A stretch of 63,489 bases of DNA, filler included, from Reclinomonas americana ATCC 50394 (taxonomy: Eukaryota): the NCBI GenBank assembly GCA_048213135.1. It is 28 parts of 28 records of this genome, joined end to end, with 100 filler letters (N's around TTAATTAATTAA, not from the genome) between each part and the next. Parts side by side here need not be neighbours in the genome. Positions count along the whole stretch, not along the records: positions 56,288 to 59,415 come from AFZH01024707.1; 27 more parts are not named here. One strand, given 5' to 3'. Position numbers and translations under genes: made by a program. Each line of letters starts with the position of its first letter. The stretch's first letter is position 1. Below the pieces are notes generated by a model. The model saw nothing but the letters and a program-made list of their open reading frames with translations. It did not search any database and was not told where the DNA came from. Of the stretch, positions 2,089 to 59,515 are shown piece by piece.

Positions 2089-4728
2089 ATGAGCCGCGTG
2101 CCCTTTGACCCGCGACGGGTGCGTCTCTCCTCTGCTCTCCTTACACACACTCCGAGACACACACACACGCACAAGCGCGCACATGTGTCACTGGGGGCGA
2201 GTCATGTTCACTTTCTCACACACACACTCTCTCACTCTCTCTCTCTCAGCGGCGGGTTTGGCACATTGAAGGGGTACTATGTCGCAACTTGGTGCCACGT
2301 CATGTGCACCTGGCGTTGCGCTCGCCGGGAATGTACACTGCGCGGTAAGTCAATCAAACGCATTCATTCCCTCTCTCTCACTCTCACTCTTGCTCACACT
2401 CTGTCTCTCTCTTCTTACAGTGACCGCAAGTTTGTGTTGTCTGCTGGTCGGCGGTCTCTGATTTCGCGGCAGAAGACGGCATTGCATCCGCGGCCAGGCG
2501 TTCTCCTCAGCTCATACTTTTTCGTCTTGTTTGCAGGTGTGTGTCTGTGAGAGAGTGTGTGTGTACTTCCTGTGTGTCTCATGGTTTGTGGGTGTGTGTG
2601 TGTGGTGCAGATGCGGATCTGGAGCGGGAGTTGTATTGCAGCGCGTTGTCGCCTCCGAGTCAGGTGTGTGTGAGTCTCTCTTCTGTGTTGTGTGTGTGTG
2701 AGAGAGAGTGTGTGTGCTGAGTCGTCTCCGTGCAGAACCCGACGTGGGATGTGCCGCTCAACCATTTATCCGAGCTCAGAGAGGATGAAGGTGAAGAGCT
2801 CTTCGTGCTTCACTCTTCCACCCTTCTTCCTCTGTCTTGCTTTCTCACACGTTCACGCTCTCCCTCTGCCTCCATTCTTCGCTCGCTCCCTTGCTCTCTC
2901 TCTCTCCCTCTCTCTGCCCCACTCTCTCCCTCTGTCCTCCCTTCATCCGCCATGCTCACATCTTCTTTCTGTGCCTGCTTCTCTCTCCGCTTTTCTTCCC
3001 TTCTTCTCTCTCTTCCTCTCCCTTCTCCCGCCTCCCTCTCCCTTTCCCTCTCCCCCCCTCTCCCTTCCCCTCACTCCCACCTCTCTTTTCCTCTCTGTGC
3101 AGCCTACCAACAACAAGAATTCGAGTTCTGCTTGTATGGAGTGCGGCATCCGAGCGTGGTGGCACAGCAGGCACAGCCGGCCACCGCGCCGTCCTCGTTA
3201 CCGGCGTCCTCGACCAGACCGAGCATCCCGGCCTCGGCCTCCTCCGTATCGGTGGCCTCGGCCGCCATGGCACTGCGTCGGGGGCGTCAGCTGCCGATCC
3301 CCAGTGAGCGGGAGCCGGCACCGCAAAGTGCACCCGCGGAAGCCGATCCACTGACGCAGGCGTCGCCGCTGCCGTCACCGTCGTTTTGTGTGAAGCGTGA
3401 TGATGCGCCGTTCCTGGCGGCGGCACAGGTGTGCTCCGAGAGTCACGATCAGTCGGAGGCGCACTCGCCGCACGTCAAGATCGATCCGCAAGAGGTGTTT
3501 TGTGCCATGCGATTCCGTCTGAGTTTGCGACAGCTGGTCAAGTGCCAGTGCGATGTTGCGTGCATGCATATTTCCCCTCCCACTCGGCCACGATTATCGT
3601 GTTGACTTGCATTCTGTGTGTGCAGCCGTCGGAAATTCCACTCCCGACCAACACCATTCTCTTTCAGTTCCAGGACGGGTTGTACTTTGTGCCGTCGTTG
3701 GTGCTGCAGCTGGAGGATGTGTCGTGGACGGTGGGTTGTACGAGAAAAAAAAAAGAGACAGCGCTCAACAATGTCTGACTGCGTATCTGCAGGGCTTCTC
3801 GTCGCAAGCTGACATTGCGCGCTCTGTGGACCTGTCACCGCCGTTCCGGCAGAGTCTCTATGCCAACTACGGCGGCACGTGGCGCGACTGGCCATCAGGG
3901 GAGCCGGCGCCGAGTGACTTGGCGGTGGTACTCAGCCACCCGGATTCATCGGTGCGGCGTGTTGTTGCTGTCAGCGACTCATGGTGTACTGGCGCGCGAC
4001 TCACACCAAACACTGCCCCTTCCCCAGATTACGCTGCGCGACATTCAAATGGGACTCGGCAAGATAATACACTACCGTGCCATCTCCAAAGAGGTGGCTG
4101 CAGACGTGGCGGTGCACAAGCAGCGTGTGGAGCGGGAAATTCTCGCCCCGCATGCCGACGACAGGGAGAGAGTTGCGCGCGAGTACGAAGAGTCTGCATC
4201 GCGTCAATGTCTGTGTTTATTTACCTTCGCCGACAGATACGTGAACTGGAGGAGAGAGCGAGGGAGGTGTTGCCACTGCGCGCGCAGGTGGCCTCGTGGC
4301 GTGCAACAGTGGCCAAGAGTTGCGTTGGGTGGCGTGTGCTGCAAGACCGCTTCCATCGCGCTGACACGGTGGCGCGTGTGCAGGGAAAGATGCTCTGCGC
4401 AACTTGTCAATATCGGTACAAGAGAACCGAGATCGTCTGCAGGAGTCATTCGCGGTATTGGAGGCGAAAAAGGCGGCGCTGGCGCAGCGGGATGCCGAGT
4501 TGCAGTCACACAGGTGCCGTCATCTCCTCCTCCTCATCATTACTGGAGTTTCCCTGCGTCCACTCATCCAAGCATCCTCGTTGTTTATTTGTGCAGAGCG
4601 GCCTTGTCGCAGTGCGAGCAGGAGCTGCTGTTGCGGCAGAGCATCATGGTGGAGGAGCTGTCGTCGATATTCCGCGTCAACCGGGAGTCGCTGGCCGGCA
4701 TTCCCTTGGCCAACAAGGATCTGTCAGG
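2089..4728 (+). CDS. UVRAG: UVRAG/Vps38-like autophagy PI3K subunit, multi-exon, 3' partial
   Basis: Exons read MSRVPFDPRR|RRVWHIEG, LLSSYFFVLF, ELYCS..|NPTW (C2-like), NTILFQFQDGLYF, a coiled coil, then RQSIMVEELSSIF..LAGIPL, in UVRAG order. Confidence 0.7.
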
Positions 4729-4731
4729 TAC

Positions 4732-4984
<253 letters not shown>

Positions 4985-8622: not shown

Positions 8623-9534
8623 ATGTCACGTCGCACCACGTCCGTCATCGCCGCGCTCGCCGCGGTCCCGCTCTTCGTCGCACTCGCCGGCTGCGCCACC
8701 GCGTCGTCCGACGCCGGCTCCGACGACGGTGGATCCACCGAGAACGAGGTGGTCAAGGTCGGCATCGTCGGCAAGGGCGACGCGCAGTGGGAACCCTTCG
8801 TCGAGGCTGCCGCTGAAGAGGGCATCACCGTCGAGCTCGTCGACTTCGGCAGCTACGAGCAGCCGAATCCCGCACTCACCGAGGGCGAGGTCGACCTCAA
8901 CCAGTTCCAGCACATCGTGTACCTCGCGGAGTACAACGAGGCATCGGGCTCAGATCTCACCCCGATCGGCTCGACCGCGATATACCCGCTGGGCCTCTAC
9001 TCCACGAAGTACGACGACGTGAAGGACATCCAGAAGGGCGAGACCGTCGCCGTTCCGGATGACGCCTCCAACCAGGCCCGCTCGCTCAACGTGCTGCAGC
9101 AGGCCGGTCTCGTCGAGCTGAAGAGCGGCGGCACGCCTTACTCCGACCTCGCCGACGTCGACACCGAGAAGTCCAAGGTGCAGGTCAAGGCCCTCGAAGC
9201 CGCACTCACCCCGACCTCGCTCCCGGACGTCGCCGCGGCGATCATCAACAACGACTTCGTGAAGGATGCCGGTCTGACGTTCGAGGACGCGCTGGCCACC
9301 GACGACATCGAGGACCCGAACGCGCTGCCGTACGTGAACGTCTTCGCCGCGCGCGCAGAGGACGCCGACAACGAGACGTACCTCAAGCTCGTCGAGATCT
9401 TCCAGACCGACGAGGCTGTGCAGAAGGGCCTCGCGGAGTCGTCGGGCGGTACGGCGCTGTCGCTGCAGACGCCGGTCAAGGACCTCGTGGACTCGCTGAA
9501 GAAGGTCCAGAAGGAAGCTGCGGAGAACAAGTGA
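8623..9534 (+). CDS. metQ: MetQ/NlpA methionine ABC lipoprotein (actinobacterial)
   Basis: Lipobox LAGC, PNPAL..GEVDLNQFQH and YPLGLYS. RBS GAGGAA. Confidence 0.92.
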   Translation: MSRRTTSVIAALAAVPLFVALAGCATASSDAGSDDGGSTENEVVKVGIVGKGDAQWEPFVEAAAEEGITVELVDFGSYEQPNPALTEGEVDLNQFQHIVYLAEYNEASGSDLTPIGSTAIYPLGLYSTKYDDVKDIQKGETVAVPDDASNQARSLNVLQQAGLVELKSGGTPYSDLADVDTEKSKVQVKALEAALTPTSLPDVAAAIINNDFVKDAGLTFEDALATDDIEDPNALPYVNVFAARAEDADNETYLKLVEIFQTDEAVQKGLAESSGGTALSLQTPVKDLVDSLKKVQKEAAENK

Positions 9535-9563
9535 GCACGGGCGGGAGCGATCCCGCCTGATGC

Positions 9564-9600
9564 GAGAATCGGGTGACGCCGTGTGCGTCGCCCGATTCTC
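9564..9600 (+). terminator. Strong intergenic hairpin between metQ and metN
   Basis: gagaatcgggtgacgc-cgtgt-gcgtcgcccgattctc, a 16-bp stem. Confidence 0.55.
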
Positions 9601-9629
9601 ATTTCCCGAGAACCAGACCGGAGAAGCAC

Positions 9630-10673
9630 ATGCCGATCGTGAGCCTGACGAACGTGTCGAAGGCCTACCCTTCGCGGAACCCCGGAGACGGCGAGATCGT
9701 CGCGGTCGATGACGTGACCCTCGAGATCGAGAAGGGCGACGTGTTCGGCATCATCGGATACTCCGGTGCCGGCAAGTCGACGCTCGTGCGCCTGATCAAT
9801 GCGCTGGAGCCGGCCACCGCCGGCAGCATCCTCGTCGACGGGGTCGACATCACCTCGCTCAAGGAGAGCGAGCTCCGGCGCATCCGCGGCGGCATCGGCA
9901 TGATCTTCCAGCAGTTCAACCTCTTCTCGTCGCGCAGCGTCAAGGCGAACATCGCCTACCCGCTCACGCTCGCCGGGTGGAAGAAGGCCGACATCGAGGC
10001 CCGGGTCACCGAGCTGCTGTCGTTCGTCGGGTTGTCCGACAAGGCGAAGGCCTACCCCGAGCAGCTCTCCGGCGGACAGAAGCAGCGCGTCGGCATCGCC
10101 CGCGCTCTCGCGACGGGTCCTGCGATCCTCCTCGCCGACGAGGCGACCAGCGCACTCGACCCGCAGACCACTCACGAGGTGCTCGACCTGCTCAAGCGCG
10201 TGAACAAGGAGCAGGGCGTGACGATCGTCGTCATCACCCACGAGATGGACGTCATCCAGACCATCGCCACGAAGGTCGCCGTGATGGAGCGCGGCCGGGT
10301 CATCGAGCAGGGCGACGTGTTCGACGTGTTCTCGGCCCCGCAGAACCCGGCATCGCAGCGCTTCGTCGGCACCGTCGTCAAGGGCATCCCGTCGCCCGCG
10401 GAGCTGGCCGTGCTGCGCGAGCGTCATCAGGGACGCATCGTCACCTTCTCGTTCCGCGACGGGGATTCGTCGCAGGCGCAGGTGTTCCTCGACCTCGCGA
10501 ACGCGGGCTTGGACTTCGAGCTCGTCTTCGGCGGCATCAACGACATCCGTGGGCGGGCCTTCGGGCATCTCACGCTCGCGATCCGGGGGGACGGCGCGGC
10601 GATCGACCGCGCGCTGGCCGGGATCGGCGAACGCGTCGAAGTCACCGAGATCGCCGGAGAGGAGGCACACTGA
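9630..10673 (+). CDS. metN: Methionine ABC transporter ATPase
   Basis: GYSGAGKS, LSGGQKQR, DEATSALDP and a C-terminal NIL-like domain. Confidence 0.93.
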   Translation: MPIVSLTNVSKAYPSRNPGDGEIVAVDDVTLEIEKGDVFGIIGYSGAGKSTLVRLINALEPATAGSILVDGVDITSLKESELRRIRGGIGMIFQQFNLFSSRSVKANIAYPLTLAGWKKADIEARVTELLSFVGLSDKAKAYPEQLSGGQKQRVGIARALATGPAILLADEATSALDPQTTHEVLDLLKRVNKEQGVTIVVITHEMDVIQTIATKVAVMERGRVIEQGDVFDVFSAPQNPASQRFVGTVVKGIPSPAELAVLRERHQGRIVTFSFRDGDSSQAQVFLDLANAGLDFELVFGGINDIRGRAFGHLTLAIRGDGAAIDRALAGIGERVEVTEIAGEEAH

Positions 10674-10965
10674 TGGATCGTCTGATCGAACTCGGGCCGG
10701 AGTTCTGGGCCGCGGCCCTCGAGACCCTCTACATGACCTCGTTCGCGCTCGTCCTCGGCGGTGTGCTGGGCCTCGTCATCGGCATCATCCTCTACGTGAC
10801 GCGACCGGGAGGGCTCGTGCAGAACGCGTTCGTCTCGACGATCGCGAACCTCGCCGTCAACTTCTTCCGTCCTATTCCGTTCGTGATCTTCATGGCCGTG
10901 GCGCAGCCGTTCGCCCGCGCGGTCGTCGGCGTCGGCATCGGCACCACGGCCGGCGCCTTCATCAT
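10673..10965 (+). CDS. metI: Methionine ABC permease, 3' partial
   Basis: ETLYM...NFFRPIPFVI. Start overlaps the metN stop (TGATG). Confidence 0.9.
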
Positions 10966-33046: not shown

Positions 33047-33894
33047 GCCACCGGCGGCTGACCCGCGATCTGGTACAGCCGCTCGTCGCGCGACGCCCGC
33101 CGGTCGATCCGTGGCAGCGACGCCAGGAGCCCTGCCGTGTAGGGGTGCGCGGTCTCGTAGAAGAGCGGATCGACGTCGGCCGTCTCGACCACCCCGCCCG
33201 CGTACATCACCAGGACGCGGTCGGCGGTGCCGGCGACCACGCCGAGGTCGTGCGTGATGAGCAGCACGGTCGTGCCGGTACGGCGCTGCACCTCGCGCAG
33301 CACCTCGAGCACCTGCGCCTGCACGGTCACGTCGAGCGCGGTCGTCGGCTCGTCGGCGATCAACAGGTCGGGCTCGTTGGCGATGCTCATCGCGATCATC
33401 ACGCGCTGGCGCATGCCTCCCGAGAACTCGTGCGGATAGCGGTCGACGCGCAGTTCGGGCGAGGGGATGCCGACCACGTCGAGCAGCTCGATGGCTCGCG
33501 CCTTCCGCTCGGCCGTCGTGGTGTCCGGACGGTGCACGCGCACGGCCTCGATCAGCTGCTCGCCGACGCGCATCACCGGGTTGAGGGCGGTCAGCGCGTC
33601 CTGGAAGACCACGGCGATGTCCTTGCCGCGGATCTCGCGCAGCGCGGCATCCGACATCCCGACGAGCTCCTGGCCGCGGAACCGGATCGAGCCGGTGACG
33701 ACGGCCTTCTTCGGCAGCAGCCCCATGATCGCCATCGCGGTCATCGACTTGCCCGAGCCCGACTCCCCGACGATCCCGACCGTCTCCCCCTCGCGCAGCA
33801 CGAACGAGACGCCCTCGATAGCCCGGGCGAGACCGGCATCCGTCGGAAAGCTGACCGACAGATCCGAGACCTCGAGCAGCACCCCGCCGCTCAC
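33047..33894 (-). CDS. Oligopeptide ABC ATPase (OppD/DppD), 3' partial
   Basis: [16 protein letters not shown] and DEPTTALD. Confidence 0.92.
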
Positions 33895-34793
33895 AGGTTC
33901 TTCCCCTGCGGGTCGAGCGCATCGCGCAGTCCGTCGCCGATGAAGTTCACGCACAGCACCGTCACGAGGATGAACAGTCCGGGGAAGTACAGCAGGTACA
34001 CCTGCGGAGTGCCGACGTAGCCGGCGGCCTGGCTGAGCATCGAACCCCAGCTGGTCTGCGGCGGCTGCACGCCGAATCCGAGGAAGCTCAGCGTCGACTC
34101 GGCGATGATCGAGGAGGCCACCGCCAGGCTCATCGCGACCACGATCACGCCCGCGAGATTCGGCAGCAGGTGCGAGACGACGATGCGGAATCCGGATGCT
34201 CCGATCCCGCGCGCCGCGTCGATGAAGTCCTTCTCGCGGAGCGACAGCACCTGCGCCCGCACGACCCGGGCGATGTAGGTCCAGCCGAGGGCGGTGAGCG
34301 CCAGGACGATCGTGGTCGGCGACGGCCCGAGGCCCTGCAGGATCACGGCCAGCAGCGCGATCGCCGGAACGATGAGGAAGAGGTCGGTGATGCGCATGAT
34401 GAGCTCGCCGATCCAGCCGCCGACGTAGCCCGAGATCGCGCCGAGGGCGGTGCCGACAACCGTCGCGAGCACGGCGACGGCGAGTCCGATCGCGAGCGAG
34501 ATCTGTCCGGAGAAGAGGATCTCGCTGAGGTAGTCGCGACCCAGCTCGTCGGTGCCGAGCCAGTGCGCCCCCGAGGGCGGGGTGGGTCCGGTGAGGAGGT
34601 CCTGCTGTCCCTGCGGGTACGGCGCGATCCAGCCCGCGCCGAAGCAGGCGATCAGCAGGATCACCAGCACGATCAGACTCACCACGCCCAGTCGGTGCCG
34701 CAGGAACCCCTTCAGCAGCTGACGGGTGGGCGCCTTCTGCGGCTCCTGCTCGGCGAGCAGCTCCTCGCGCCCCGCGATGCCGGCACCGCTCAT
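33891..34793 (-). CDS. Oligopeptide ABC permease (OppC/DppC)
   Basis: HWLGTDELGRD, EAA-like motif and LSFLGFGVQPP. Confidence 0.92.
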   Translation of the reverse strand: MSGAGIAGREELLAEQEPQKAPTRQLLKGFLRHRLGVVSLIVLVILLIACFGAGWIAPYPQGQQDLLTGPTPPSGAHWLGTDELGRDYLSEILFSGQISLAIGLAVAVLATVVGTALGAISGYVGGWIGELIMRITDLFLIVPAIALLAVILQGLGPSPTTIVLALTALGWTYIARVVRAQVLSLREKDFIDAARGIGASGFRIVVSHLLPNLAGVIVVAMSLAVASSIIAESTLSFLGFGVQPPQTSWGSMLSQAAGYVGTPQVYLLYFPGLFILVTVLCVNFIGDGLRDALDPQGKNL

Positions 34794-35050
34794 GACAGTC
34801 TCACTCTCGGGTCGAGCACCGCGTAGGCGATGTCGGCGATCAGGTTGCAGATCACGACCGCGACGGCGACCACGATCATCCAGGGCAGCAGCACGAACAC
34901 GTCGCCGGCCACGAGCGACTGCAGGAACAGGCGCCCCATGCCGGGGATCGCGAAGATCTGCTCGGTGACCACGAGGCCGCCGATGAGGATCGCCGCGTCC
35001 AGTGCGACGACCGTGACGAACGGTGCGAGCGAGTTGCGCACCGCATGCCG
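34790..35050 (-). CDS. Oligopeptide ABC permease (OppB/DppB), 3' part
   Basis: TEQIFAIPGMG..YAVLDPRVR. Confidence 0.88.
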   Translation of the reverse strand, partial: RHAVRNSLAPFVTVVALDAAILIGGLVVTEQIFAIPGMGRLFLQSLVAGDVFVLLPWMIVVAVAVVICNLIADIAYAVLDPRVRLS

Positions 35051-39874: not shown

Positions 39875-40577
39875 GAACTTCGTCACCGTGCTCACCGATC
39901 CGCGGGTACTCGGCTCGTTCCGCAACACGCTGGTGTTCCTGGTGATCAACGTGCCGCTGACCGCGGTGCTCTCGCTCGTGCTCGCCGCGGCCCTCAACAC
40001 CGGCATCCGCTGGGTGGCCGCGTATCGGGTCGCGTTCTACGTGCCGTACCTGACGGCGAGCGTCTCGCTGGTCGGCGTGTGGATGCTGCTGTTCTCGGGC
40101 AACGGACTGATCAACTCGATCCTCGGCCCGCTCGCGCCCGACCCGTCGTGGCTCGTGAACAGCGGGCTCGCGATGCCGATGATCGCGCTCTACGTGACCT
40201 GGAAGCAGCTGGGCTTCTACATCCTGCTGTATCTCGCGGCGCTCCAGAACGTGCCCAAGGAGCTCTACGAATCGGCGGAGACCGACGGCGCCGGCGCCTT
40301 CAAGCGCTTCCTGCACGTCACGGTCCCCGGCGTCCGCAGCGCCACCACGCTCGTGCTGATCCTGTCGATCATCACCGGCGCCAACCTCTTCACCGAGCCG
40401 TATCTGCTCACCAACGGCGGAGGGCCGGACGGCGCCTCCTCCACCCCGGTGCTGCTCATCTACCAGCTGGGCATCCAGCAGCAGAACCCCGACACGGCCG
40501 CAGCAATCGGCATGATCCTCGTGATCCTCGTCGGCATGCTGTCGCTGGCGGCGAACCGCGCGACCAGGGAGCGATGA
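39875..40577 (+). CDS. Carbohydrate ABC permease, 5' partial
   Basis: ALQNVPKELYESAETDGA. Confidence 0.9.
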
Positions 40578-41416
40578 TGAAACGCAGAAGCAAGGCCCCC
40601 CGCATCCTCAGCATCGTCCTGCTCACGGTGGCGGCGATCGGATTCGCCTTCCCGTTCTACTTCATGCTCGTCGGGGCGTTCCAGGAGAGTCCGACGAACG
40701 CGCCGAACGAGCTCTTCCCGACCAGCGGATGGACCGTCGACAACTTCGTCGCGATCGACTCGCGGATCGACCTCGCTGGCTCTCTGCTGAACTCGCTGAT
40801 CTTCACGGCGGGTGTGCTGCTCGGCACCGTGGTGTTCGGACTGCTCGCCGGGTACGCGATCGCCCGTCTCGACTTCCGTGGACGCGGCGTCGTCTGGGTG
40901 CTCATGCTGCTCGTGCAGATGGTGCCGTTCCAGCTGCTGATGATCCCGCTGTACGTGCAGATCACCCGCAGCTACGGACTCGGGGACTCGTACCTCGGCA
41001 TGATCCTGCCGTTCCTCATCAACACGACCGCCGTGTTCATCTTCGTGCAGTTCTTCAAGGCGCTGCCCGTGGAGATCTTCGAGGCGGCGCGCATCGACGG
41101 GGCCGGCGAGATCCGCCTGCTGACCTCGGTCGCGATCCCGCTCATCCGGCCCGTGCTGGTGACCGTCGTGCTCGTCACGTTCATCGGTCCGTGGAACGAG
41201 TTCCTCTGGCCGTTCCTCATCACGAAGGATGCGACGCTGCAGCCGCTCGCCGTGTCTCTCGCGAACTACATCTCGAACGTGGCGCAGTCCACCGCGAACC
41301 CCAACGGGGCGATCCTCGCCGGCGCGACCGCGCTCGCCTTCCCCGTCGTCATCCTGTTCATCGTCTTCCAGCGGTTCTTCCGCGCCACCGACCTCGGCGC
41401 AGCCGTCAAGGGCTGA
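40574..41416 (+). CDS. Carbohydrate ABC permease
   Basis: EIFEAARIDGAGE and WNEFLWP. Confidence 0.92.
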   Translation: MMKRRSKAPRILSIVLLTVAAIGFAFPFYFMLVGAFQESPTNAPNELFPTSGWTVDNFVAIDSRIDLAGSLLNSLIFTAGVLLGTVVFGLLAGYAIARLDFRGRGVVWVLMLLVQMVPFQLLMIPLYVQITRSYGLGDSYLGMILPFLINTTAVFIFVQFFKALPVEIFEAARIDGAGEIRLLTSVAIPLIRPVLVTVVLVTFIGPWNEFLWPFLITKDATLQPLAVSLANYISNVAQSTANPNGAILAGATALAFPVVILFIVFQRFFRATDLGAAVKG

Positions 41417-41446
41417 TCACTCGCTGTCCAGCCAGAAAGGGCATCC

Positions 41447-42271
41447 ATGTTCTCCGGAGCCTCCTTCCCCCTCGGTCCGTTCACCCCGTACGAGGGCAAC
41501 CCGATCCTGCGCCCGCGCGGCGACAGCTGGGAGTCGGCGAACCTCTACAACCCGGCGGCGATCGTCGACGGCGACGAGGTCGTGCTGCTCTACCGGGCGC
41601 ACGCCGACGACATCATCTCCCACATCGGCATCGCCCGCTCGAGCGACGGCGTGAACTTCACCCGCGAGGATGCACCGATCCTGTCGCCGTCCGAGGACTA
41701 CGAGACCTACGGCTGCGAGGACCCGCGCATCGCTCTGATCGACGGCACCTACTACCTCACCTACACGGGGTGGGATCGCCGCAGCGCGCAGCTGTGCCTG
41801 GCCACCTCGACGGACCTCCGCACCTGGACCAAGCACGGTCCGCTGTTCGACGACTTCGACACCTTCAAGACCATGGACCCCCGCGGGTTCAACTGGTCGA
41901 AGGCCGGGGTCATCGTGCCGCAGCGGATGCATGGGAAGTGGTGGATGTACTTCGGCGAGGGCGCGATCTACTGGGCGACCAGCGACGACCTCATCCACTG
42001 GGCCCCCGGCACGGCCGACACCGATCCGATGTACTCGCCGACGCCCGGCACCTGGGACGAGGCGCTCGTCGAGATCGGCACCTCGCCCGTCGTGACCGAC
42101 AACGGCCTGCTGCTGTTCCTGACGAACGGCGCCACCCGCGTCGTGAACGACGACGGCTCCGTCGATGTCGACTACCGCTGCGGTCAGATCGCGATCGACC
42201 CGGATGAGCCGACGAAGGTCATCGCCCGTCTGCAGGAGCCGTGGCTGCGACCGCAGACCTTCGAGGACAGG
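41447..42271 (+). CDS. GH130 family beta-mannoside phosphorylase/glycosidase, 3' partial
   Basis: NPIL.P, YNPAAI, LLYRA, GCEDPRI, YYLTYT and WSKAG. Confidence 0.85.
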
Positions 42272-56140: not shown

Positions 56141-56287
56141 CGAAAAATTAACCAGTGGATTGTCGCCACTTCGTCCTGGGACGAGGGNNNNNNNNNNNNN
56201 NNNNNNNNNNNNNNNNNNNNNNNNNNNNNNNTTAATTAATTAANNNNNNNNNNNNNNNNNNNNNNNNNNNNNNNNNNNNNNNNNNNN

Positions 56288-57853
56288 GGGCCGTCAGCGA
56301 CTGGAAGTGCGATGGATCGAGCATGGCGTCGACGCTGAGCGACATCTCCACACTGTCCTCGTACACATCCTGAATAGTCTCCGGCGACACCAATATGAAG
56401 GACGAGGCCAGCGCGAGAATGGCGTTGCGCACGCGGCACACACTCTCGCGCCCCGCCGTCTCGTCCGTCACCGTGCTGGCAGGCGACAGCCACACGTAGC
56501 CGTTGAGGCCGAGAATCATGTCCACGCCCAGTGCGGCGAACGAGTGAAAGTGCTGCTTGCACCGCTTGATGAGATGCGGCTGTACCTCCACCAGCACACC
56601 GTTGCCGAGTCGTCCGTAGCGCGATGAACGCGTCTGCAGCGCCATTGAGCCATCCTGCTGATAAAACTGCTGTACCTCGGCGCTGATCAAGTCGCCCTCG
56701 GCGTACATGCTGCGCATGTTCAGCTGGTCCTCGTAGGTTCTCCGCCGCTGAGCGTCGCCCGGCAGTGTCACAGCCGACAGCAGCAGCACGGCGCTCTGGA
56801 ACGAGTTCACATCGACCTTCCACCGCTTGTTGCCGACCTGAGCAGCGCGTGGCAAGTGTTGGAAAGACACGCAAACAAAAAACAACGAAAACAAAGCAAC
56901 AACAAACATCGACAATGCGCCCGACCACCACGTCGCCCACGTGGCCTTGGTAGCGCGACTTGAGTGGCACCACCGACACCAACTGATTGACGCGCTCCAC
57001 CACCCCGCAAATGGCGGCGTACAGGTGGTTGTCGACCGAGTACGTTCCGTGGCCTCTGCGACACAAAAAGTTGTCGTTCAGACCTCAAACTAAAAAAAAA
57101 ACATTGGAACACTCTCGTCTTTGCGTGTCATCCTTGCACAGGGGCCAAGCTAATCTTCTCTGTATCGTTCCAATTTTTGAGTTTGGCGAAGACCCGAAGG
57201 TCTTGCCGACTCCACACATGGTCTCCACCCACACCCATATGCACGCGGCGACACATGCCACGCGATGCATTATGGGACAAGCTGATCGAAATCAGCGGCA
57301 AGTCTGCAATGGACACCACAGACACGAGAAATGTGCAGAACCCTTCCTCTGCCTCCAACGAGGTGCACGGAGAATGTGTACAGAGTGGAGAGAGAGAAAC
57401 TGTGCAACAAAGTGCAACAAAGTGTGCTGTTGTGCATAAGGAGTCAGATGTTGAGTCGGCGGTCATGGCAGAGCCCACACGCGCACACGCACAACTCGGA
57501 GAACACGCACACACACACCACCACCACTGCCACGCTGCAGTTGTTGTGTGCTGCGTGCGCCTGAACGTCGAGAAGAGTGCATTCCCCCAGCAATCTGAAC
57601 ACACTCTCTTATCCCTTCATCTCCTCTCCTTCTCCCTCCCTCCCGTCTCTCTTCTTCACACTGCCTCCCTCACTCACTTGCCCCCCACACACACACGCAC
57701 TCGACTGAGACCACACAGACACGCAGACACTCACCGCAAGTGACCCGTGTCATCCTCTAGAATCAAATCTCCCGGCGTCACCAGGTGCACTCCGCTGTAC
57801 TCGGTCACGCTCTTCCTCCGCCCACTACTGCCGGAGCCACTGCCACTCGCCAT
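56288..57853 (-). CDS. RRP4: Exosome cap subunit RRP4/EXOSC2; exons 57853-57735, 57055-56908, 56837-56288 (3' partial)
   Basis: [39 protein letters not shown]|..[25 protein letters not shown]. Confidence 0.95.
57097..57213 (-). ncRNA. U6: U6 spliceosomal snRNA
   Basis: 5' stem-loop, then AAAATTGGAACGATACAGAGAAGATTAGCTTGGCCCCTGTGCAAGGATGACACGCAAA..GTTCCAATG and a T10 Pol III terminator. Confidence 0.96.
57268..57278 (-). promoter_or_regulatory. USE/PSE-like element GTCCCATAATG upstream of U6
   Basis: At about -65 to -55 from the inferred start. Resembles the plant USE RTCCCACATCG. Confidence 0.35.
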
Positions 57854-58007
57854 GGCTACACGATTAGATCACAGATCACAATCCATCCACCGACACTTCA
57901 TCAATCGCTTCTCTGTCTTCCGTGTGTCTGCGTGTGCGCCTCTCCCTCGCTCGCCGTGAGTGCATCTCTCTGCGTGTGCGTCGGTGGTGCAGCAAAGGCA
58001 AGAATCA

Positions 58008-59415
58008 ATGGAGTACGACAGCGGGCACGGCGACTATGAGCGCGACATGTCGCCACCACCCGTGTCGGGCGGTGCAGCCTCGTCGCGATCGCGCAGCATT
58101 CTGGGCCACCCCGACGACGATGCACGGCTGGACGGGTGGCTGCGCTCGCATCTTGAACCCATGTGCGTGCGCTTCTCTCTCTCCGTCTCTCTCTGCGACA
58201 TGTCTGACTTGCAACACACTCGCAGCTCGGATGCAGAGCCGTCGACGCTGGCCAACCTCGTCAAGGCCCTGTTGAAGCCGGAGCGCATTGATGATGCAGA
58301 TCACCGGCGTCGCCTCTCAAACGAGCTCAAGGACTTTGTGTCGGATCCGCATCGTTGCGTCACCCCCCGCCGAGCGTAGTGTGTGTTGCCGGCACTGCAT
58401 TCTCATGCGGTTCACGGTGGGCGGTGCAGATGCTGATCGGTTTGTGGATGAGCTGGCCGAGGCGATTCACTCGCGGCGTTTCTCGCGCACCAGCAGTGCC
58501 GTCGGTGGTGCTTCTTCGTCGTCGTCGTCATCATCATCGCGACGGCCGTATGTGAGCGAGCGCGACCGGTCGGCAGGGCGGCGCGACACCTGGCGGCGAT
58601 CGGAGCGTGGCTCGAGCCGCGAGCGCGACAAGCGACGACGCAGTCCGTCTCCGCAGAACGGCTACGGGCGGGTGAGCGATGACCACGATGCTGGTGCGCC
58701 GTACAAGCGCGCACGCAGTTATCGCAGTCGGTCGCGGTCGCCGCCGCCCACCTCGGCTACGCGGCGTGGAGGTGACCAACACGGCGCACCGCCACCAAGT
58801 TGCGTGGCAGAGTTGCTTGTTTTTTTTCCTCAGCATGTCGACAGGGGCTCACTCCACCTGTCCGCAGTCCACGTGGGCGAGTCCGACAAGGACGGCGGTG
58901 GTGACATTGTGCCGTACGATCCCGAGTCGCCATCCATCGCCGCCGTGTCGCCATCGGCGGGTGAGGGTGGTGCTGCAGCAGGTCAATTGCAGCAGCAACA
59001 GCAGCAACAGCAGCAGCAACAACAACAACAACACCATGGTGGTCCACCGCACATGCACCAGCCGGGTGGCACACCGTTTTATGCTGGCCCCCCGGGTGCG
59101 TATCTCGGCGGGCGTCCGCCCGGCTTTGCCCCCATGTACATGCCACGAGGAGGGCTTGAGATGTACAGATATCCGCCTGGCGGCATGATTGGTGTGCATC
59201 CAGCAGCCGCCTACAGAATGGGACGCAATGGCCCGGCCGACGCCGGTGGTCCCGAGGGCGGACCACCGATGATGAGTGCGCCTGGTGGCGGCATGCTCAT
59301 GGGAGCTCCGCACGGTCCGCCTATGATGTACGCAGGTGGTGGAGGTCGGGGACGCGGGCGCGATGGCATGTGGAATGGATCCATGAGAGGCTCACGGCGC
59401 TCGTCGCAAGGAAAC
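58008..59415 (+). CDS. RBM26: RBM26/RBM27-like PWI-domain protein, 3' partial
   Basis: LDGWLRSHLEPI|SDAEPSTLANLVKALLK..LKDFV..FVDELAEAI, an RS-rich region, and YDPESPSI. Confidence 0.8.
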
Positions 59416-59515
59416 NNNNNNNNNNNNNNNNNNNNNNNNNNNNNNNNNNNNNNNNNNNNTTAATTAATTAANNNNNNNNNNNNNNNNNNNNNNNNNNNNN
59501 NNNNNNNNNNNNNNN

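Follow-up and report, generated by a model that had tools for sequence, protein, structure and literature searches.

The window analysed here, a stretch of 63,489 bases from Reclinomonas americana, was pieced together as a pseudo-scaffold from 28 short contigs. Each of the 27 linkers between them has a 12-base all-frame stop sequence flanked on both sides by 44 N. One N-free contig of ∼3.1 kb (56288–59415) carries the gene for the exosome subunit RRP4 and, inside its first intron, a gene for the spliceosomal U6 snRNA that reads in the same direction (Table 1). As U6, the entire intron 1 and both flanking exons share this one contig, the assembly joins are not the source of the nesting. The RRP4 gene runs off the contig end, and the C-terminus of the protein is therefore absent. 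At its other end, a spacer of 154 bp separates the start codon of RRP4 from that of a divergent neighbouring gene.

The host gene was identified from its protein domains and homologues. Exon 3 matched the Pfam families RRP4_S1 (1.4e-23) and KH_6 (1.7e-12), and exon 2, a 49-aa piece, matched ECR1_N (5.8e-06) with 26.4 bits, which is just below the cut-off of 27. The order of the domains (N-terminal domain, S1, KH) is that of the exosome cap subunit RRP4/EXOSC2. Of the 704 candidates from a protein search with exon 3, 111 reached E ≤ 1e-10, and the RRP4 chains of solved exosomes in the PDB matched this exon at E 5e-38. The closest homologue was that of the jakobid Seculamonas ecuadoriensis, with 63% identity over exon 3, followed by proteins with 52–54%; this one protein points to a jakobid, or a near relative, as the probable source.

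The three exons were spliced by script, and the resulting protein was compared by alignment with 12 homologues chosen from the 111. No gap appeared at either junction in any of them (12/12). At the intron 1 junction, the motif RGHGT was present in 11 of the 12 homologues and GHG in all. Exon 1 ends with ..GHL followed by the bases CG, and the split codon CG|A restores an R, after which GHGTY follows. This exon codes for the conserved VTPGD..LR segment, and its translation lines up with RRP4 homologues at their N-termini. Because a conserved RRP4 segment spans the junction without a gap, the 679-nt intron is real as gene structure. The initial annotation had proposed that RRP4 exon 1 splices to GHGTY over a 679-nt intron and that this intron holds an intact, sense-oriented U6. 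The splice agrees with the sequence and with the ungapped alignment to 12 of 12 homologues, and the presence of U6 within the intron follows from the Rfam match described below taken together with that alignment. U6 is thus nested in RRP4 intron 1 in the direction of its host, the junction being read from the sequence.

Table 1. Features of the RRP4/U6 locus in order of transcription. Coordinates are those of the whole window; positions relative to U6 take 57207 as +1.
Feature	Position	Strand	Basis or remark
RRP4 exon 1	57735..57853	minus	ATG at 57853; 39 full codons and two bases of a split Arg codon
RRP4 intron 1, 679 nt, phase 2	57056..57734	minus	GTGAGT..CAG; junction gives LRGHGTY
10-nt tandem repeat, 2.3 units, ~195-217 nt upstream of U6	57402..57424	minus	Tandem Repeats Finder, 100% matches
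Perfect 6+6 palindrome, 4-nt centre, at -89..-74	57281..57296	minus	sequence
GTCCCATAATGCATCG, candidate proximal/upstream promoter element at -71..-56	57263..57278	minus	sequence
CATATG, TATA-like candidate at -34..-29	57236..57241	minus	sequence; +1 = 57207
U6 snRNA gene, full length	57097..57207	minus	RF00026 match; T run goes on to 57092
U6 5' stem-loop, 9 pairs, UUCG loop, one bulged C	57185..57207	minus	fold and Rfam structure line
ACAGAGA box	57157..57163	minus	same as Rfam consensus
AGC triad	57149..57151	minus	same as Rfam consensus
T10 run, presumed Pol III terminator	57092..57101	minus	at U6 3' end
TCTGAAC, candidate branch site of RRP4 intron 1	57076..57082	minus	downstream of T10
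T5, short polypyrimidine tract and possible back-up Pol III terminator	57065..57069	minus	between branch site and AG
RRP4 exon 2 (GHGTY.. to ..GRIVD)	56908..57055	minus	Pfam ECR1_N and start of RRP4_S1
RRP4 intron 2, 70 nt	56838..56907	minus	ungapped homologue alignment over the junction
RRP4 exon 3 (S1 and KH)	56288..56837	minus	3' end lost at assembly join (N-run from 56287)

RRP4 intron 1 is ∼10 times as long as the introns around it. The other introns of the same contig measure 63, 70 and 76 nt; the 70-nt intron (RRP4 intron 2) is backed by homology, and the 63- and 76-nt introns of the neighbouring gene were drawn from GT..AG ends and frame continuity only. These values fit the earlier statement that introns here are mostly 45–100 nt, as far as three introns of one contig can speak for it. 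Automated intron heuristics run on the window gave mostly false positives on high-GC3 contigs, and no size distribution was derived from them. For the nuclear genome of Andalucia godoyi, the genome paper gives an average intron of 151 bp and a range of 55–756. Within RRP4 intron 1 the placement of U6 is asymmetric, with 527 nt of intron upstream of the gene and 35 nt downstream of the T10 run, and U6 starts ∼650 bp inside RRP4.

The U6 gene is full-length. Using cmscan with Rfam 15, we obtained a score of 86.3 bits for RF00026 (gathering score 44; E 1.3e-20), and the match covers positions 1–105 of the 105 in the model, without truncation. The region of the internal stem-loop aligns with the RF00026 consensus. 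When 57207–57097 was folded, the 5' hairpin formed, and so did a long-range stem of 9 pairs that brings the 5' part of the RNA together with its 3' part (telestem). In the conserved centre of the molecule we found two departures from the Rfam consensus, one immediately after AGC and the other farther downstream. Judged by the human and yeast structures, the latter presumably belongs to the loop part of the internal stem-loop, which would leave the stem intact. The description of a full U6 with ACAGAGA box, AGC triad, internal stem-loop, 5' hairpin and T10 run thus agrees with the covariance-model match, the sequence and the fold. Marks of a retrocopy were not seen at U6: the gene has no 3' A-tail and no truncation, the bases next after T10 are AGTTTG, and none of the 25 repeat families found supplied direct repeats bracketing 57207/57092. 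At the Rfam gathering score the window also contains two tRNA genes besides U6; these three matches, and the six at E ≤ 0.1, include no snRNA other than U6.

The T10 run stands directly after U6 and is followed by T5, as expected of the oligo-T ending of a Pol III gene. T or A runs of at least 10 occur only twice in the 63,489 bases of the window, and for this reason T10 is not a product of chance; runs of at least 8 number three. The distance of ∼35 nt that had been given between T10 and the acceptor was confirmed, the last T lying 35 nt from the AG (57057–57056).

The upstream region offers candidates for promoter elements. CATATG is a weak match to a TATA box and is one of six AT-only tracts of at least 4 nt in the 527 nt upstream of U6. 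From this density, the chance that an AT tract falls near -30 is roughly estimated at ∼1 in 10, and the position of CATATG is accordingly only weakly informative, since six such tracts lie in the region. The two halves of the 16-nt GTCCCATAATGCATCG resemble a plant snRNA upstream element, a likeness to be treated as a lead only.

Internal or tRNA-type promoter elements were not in evidence. No B box with ≤1 mismatch was present in 56900–57900, a search in which both tRNA genes of the window matched as positive controls; across the whole window such matches numbered 20 against 17.9 expected. When ≤2 mismatches were allowed, we found two A-box and one B-box matches, against 3.8 and 2.0 in shuffled sequences. 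No tRNA or tRNA-like element lies in RRP4 intron 1. Control of U6 by tRNA-type A and B boxes, of the yeast SNR6 or the trypanosomatid type, was thus rejected, the boxes being not above chance and a companion tRNA being missing.

Two other readings of the long intron were considered and set aside. A blastn comparison of RRP4 intron 1 with the window, made with a repeat or transposon in mind, returned matches to CA/GT microsatellites only. As for an antisense gene, the 250-aa open frame at 56991–57743 had no Pfam match above the cut-off; one hit, LAP1_N, had 17.2 bits against a cut-off of 25.

The putative signals for removal of the host intron are packed behind U6. A candidate branch site, T5 and the AG all lie inside the last 35 nt of RRP4 intron 1, and the U6 unit ends 13 nt ahead of the likely branch point. 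The neighbour's 63-nt intron and a 62-nt candidate intron at 3731–3792 each carry a similar sequence, TCTGACT, about as far from their acceptors. The 3' splice module of the host is complete without T10, which precedes the likely branch point, so that a role of T10 as polypyrimidine tract is unnecessary. The initial suggestion that the oligo-T of U6 also serves the host intron as its polypyrimidine tract is consequently not needed, TCTGAAC being located downstream of T10 and a separate T5 standing before the AG.

The initial annotation had left two readings side by side, one in which a Pol III unit lies within a Pol II gene and one in which U6 is released from the intron. Between the two, the sequence favours the former, as we infer from the 527 nt of upstream intron, the TATA-like element and the T10 and T5 runs. 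On the annotation's further suggestion, a coupling of U6 supply to RRP4 splicing or transcription, the sequence speaks neither way. More generally, the T10 and T5 runs, the length of the upstream region in a locus that is compact elsewhere, and the lack of retrocopy marks argue for an ordinary, self-contained Pol III U6 gene nested in sense orientation in RRP4 intron 1, and we regard this as the probable explanation.

Under such an arrangement, Pol III would start at ∼57207 from an upstream promoter lying within the ∼530 nt of intron that precede U6, with the TATA-like CATATG at -34..-29 and the element at -71..-56 as candidate components. It would stop in T10, and T5 could serve as a back-up. 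Pol II would transcribe RRP4 from the 154-bp divergent promoter and read through the U6 unit, and intron 1 would then be spliced out through the branch site, T5 and AG, which crowd together in the 35 nt behind the U6 terminator. Room for the U6 gene and its promoter would account for the ∼10-fold greater length of the intron relative to its neighbours. If expression of U6 and of RRP4 were linked at all, the link would arise incidentally, from chromatin or polymerase traffic that the two share, and not from a processing dependency.

Published observations are consistent with a self-contained Pol III unit at this place. Mid-size RNA genes transcribed by Pol III from their own promoters sit in introns, whether sense or antisense (PMC6619189). 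In a reporter, a sense Pol III unit placed in the intron did not measurably change expression of the host, unlike an antisense unit (PMC5358760). At human U6 promoters, nearby Pol II enhances transcription of U6 by Pol III (PMC2082468), so that a location ∼650 bp into an active Pol II gene might even be favourable. A phrase search of published texts found no description of a U6 gene within an intron, and the precedent for U6 itself is therefore by analogy. Self-promoted Pol III genes in introns are already known, and the RRP4/U6 locus would be a fresh instance of them. The arrangement is accordingly less exceptional than it was first rated.

Other explanations were weighed against the self-contained Pol III gene. 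Free-standing U6 genes might supply the U6 of the cell, the intronic gene being a recently duplicated or retroposed copy that is barely expressed or not expressed at all. U6 pseudocopies are common in the introns of animals, and the Pol III promoter elements at the RRP4-nested U6 are candidates only, both of which speak for such a silent copy. In the human genome, divergent snRNA copies exceed 1,000 and most are taken to be pseudogenes without expression (PMC7073466). On the other hand, every conserved element of the RRP4-nested U6 is without defect, with 86 bits across the full model; T10 is present, and an A-tail, a truncation and a flanking target-site duplication are all missing. Furthermore, among introns of 63–76 nt and next to a spacer of 154 bp, one would hardly expect ∼640 nt of intron to serve no purpose. 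We therefore consider a silent or redundant copy unlikely. A mistaken picture of the locus, either from a wrong gene model in which U6 lies upstream of a shorter RRP4 or from a chimeric assembly, is highly improbable. It could be invoked because the window is made of 28 short contigs with N-linkers and the intron 1 junction is read from sequence, but the N-free contig contains U6, both exons and the whole intron, the VTPGD..LR segment of exon 1 is conserved, and the GT..AG junction gives an ungapped LRGHGTY in 12 of 12 homologues, the nearest of which shows 63% identity in exon 3.

Release of U6 from the intron would mean that U6 is made by Pol II as part of the RRP4 pre-mRNA, spliced out, debranched and trimmed by exonucleases in the manner of intronic snoRNAs, and U6 output would then depend on transcription and splicing of RRP4. 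The sense orientation of U6 at 35 nt from the 3' splice site is compatible with such a route, the Pol III promoter at the locus is a candidate only, and the sequence just past T10 is partly complementary to the 5' region of U6 (two pairings). However, an extended terminal stem around U6 was rejected, as U6 folded with its flanks was no better than shuffled sequences (MFE z = 0.20; 108 of 200 shuffles were at least as stable), which disfavours extended terminal pairing. T10 looks like a Pol III terminator, and the 527 nt of upstream intron would be left unexplained. It also counts against release that U6 is capped on the 5' triphosphate left by Pol III, that the mRNA of an exosome subunit is an unlikely high-output host, and that the phrase search found no publication on an intron-encoded U6. 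We judge release from the intron to be very improbable. Very little probability is likewise given to the proposal that this is the sole U6 gene and dependent on its host, whether U6 is cut from the RRP4 intron or Pol III loading is gated by RRP4 transcription.

The U6 genes of animals and plants are free-standing and use upstream (type 3) promoters, and yeast SNR6 has a TATA box, an A block and a downstream B block. These genes share with the RRP4-nested U6 the RNA itself and the oligo-T terminator, and the CATATG near -30 would be a weak candidate for the counterpart of their AT element. The free-standing genes, however, are intergenic and have defined PSE/USE or A/B elements, whereas the nested gene has candidates and was negative in the B-box test. 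In trypanosomatids, U6 genes are driven by the A and B boxes of a divergent upstream tRNA gene. These organisms belong to the same supergroup, Discoba, if the jakobid assignment holds; their U6 has a companion tRNA, whereas RRP4 intron 1 is without a tRNA and its A/B boxes are not above chance. Intron-encoded snoRNAs come free when the host intron is spliced out and trimmed by exonucleases, with snoRNP proteins as their protection. They resemble the RRP4-nested U6 in being sense small RNAs near the 3' splice site of the host, and differ from it in having no terminator or promoter of their own, whereas U6 has T10 and a long upstream region.

Closer parallels to the nesting come from animals. 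The intronic ncRNA loci of Caenorhabditis elegans, as described in two reports (PMC1474057, PMC2527325), likewise consist of a small-RNA gene in the intron of a protein gene, with room for a promoter and an oligo-T end, and their expression is expected to be independent of, and far above, that of the host. The promoter motifs of these animal genes (UM1-3) have been defined and tested, whereas those at the RRP4/U6 locus are candidates only, and the available text of the same reports does not state that U6 itself is intronic (PMC1474057, PMC2527325). The MIR element of the mammalian Polr3e gene is another Pol III-occupied unit within a first intron; there, as at RRP4, the host is a housekeeping gene that serves RNA metabolism, and the two polymerases may affect each other. 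This unit is antisense and interferes with its host, and as a SINE-type element it has A and B boxes (PMC5358760). The RRP4-nested unit differs from it in being a U6 gene in sense orientation, with no A or B boxes above chance.

We also looked for the arrangement in sequences of possible relatives. A 51-base stretch specific to the RRP4-nested U6 had no match in metagenome contigs, in which jakobid DNA is perhaps absent. A pattern combining the U6 core, a T run and a GHGT-coding exon within 64–124 nt also gave no match in the metagenome contigs; as a control, the pattern matched once in the window itself and in none of 100 shuffles. The protein collection was searched, with a 100-aa antisense frame that spans exon 2 and U6, for wrongly called reading frames of relatives; of four candidates, none reached E ≤ 10. 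A literature search of published texts for jakobid snRNAs or nuclear genomes turned up only the Andalucia godoyi genome paper and no publication on jakobid snRNAs, and snRNAs go unmentioned in the passages of that paper that were consulted.

The consequences of the nesting depend on which explanation holds. If U6 is a self-contained Pol III gene, the locus is mainly a point of annotation, as U6 is invisible to annotation based on proteins, and the long RRP4 intron 1 should stand in gene models and not be 'corrected' out of them. The intron also supplies a candidate U6 promoter of ∼120 nt for a little-studied jakobid-like (Discoba) lineage; the literature searched yielded no description of Pol III snRNA promoters in this lineage. 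The locus is, moreover, a compact natural test case of co-directional Pol II and Pol III traffic. The picture of U6 biogenesis would change only if production of U6 hinged on the host intron. If this were the sole U6 and were released by splicing, U6 would be a Pol II-derived and splicing-dependent RNA; if the loading of Pol III were gated instead, the supply of the catalytic RNA of the spliceosome would be tied to one of the subunits of the exosome, which degrades RNA.

The window is a pseudo-scaffold of 28 contigs (∼1–3.5 kb each) split by 27 joins; the features on either side of a join are not real neighbours. Coordinates are tabled below.

Features of the window
Feature	Position	Strand	Remark
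Pseudo-scaffold	1–63489		
Joins between contigs	e.g. 1559–1658, 56188–56287, 59416–59515		44 N, 12-base all-frame stop linker, 44 N
Candidate intron	3731–3792	+	62 nt
A/T run	3745–3754		inside candidate intron
GT dinucleotide microsatellite	4734–4851	+	long
Contigs with high GC3	9100–10700, 33800–34900, 40400–41800, and others		long open frames
tRNA-Ala(CGC)	17391–17466	-	not on the RRP4 contig
tRNA-Pro(GGG)	22747–22823	+	not on the RRP4 contig
Neighbour gene, divergent from RRP4	58008–59415	+	truncated at contig end
Neighbour-gene intron, inferred	58163–58225	+	63 nt
Neighbour-gene intron, inferred	58354–58429	+	76 nt

In the long open frames of several contigs, we observed a third-codon-position GC (GC3) of 0.9–1.0; these contigs may be bacterial contaminants from a non-axenic culture, or may carry strongly biased genes. 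The GC3 of the RRP4 contig is far below this range. CA/GT tracts akin to the long microsatellite are present in RRP4 intron 1 as well as in several other contigs.

Besides U6, the only Pol III genes in the window are the two tRNA genes. A sub-threshold tmRNA-clan match at tRNA-Ala(CGC) is the tRNA itself. The only A/T run of at least 10 nt in the window, other than that of RRP4 intron 1, lies inside the 62-nt candidate intron, which also has a branch-site-like TCTGACT ∼20 nt upstream of its AG.

The divergent neighbour gene is 154 bp away from the RRP4 start. Its product is of low complexity, being Ser/Arg-rich first and Gln/Gly/Pro/Met-rich thereafter, and two pieces of it searched against Pfam yielded no match.

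Among the RRP4 homologues from the protein-collection search, an N-terminal fragment of 141 aa (P0111), encoded on a 505-nt ENA contig, appears to rank second in relatedness to the window's RRP4, behind the homologue of the jakobid Seculamonas ecuadoriensis. This fragment is unbroken across the positions of both RRP4 introns, and hence its source is probably a transcript. P0111 marks the presence of another jakobid-like organism in the public data.
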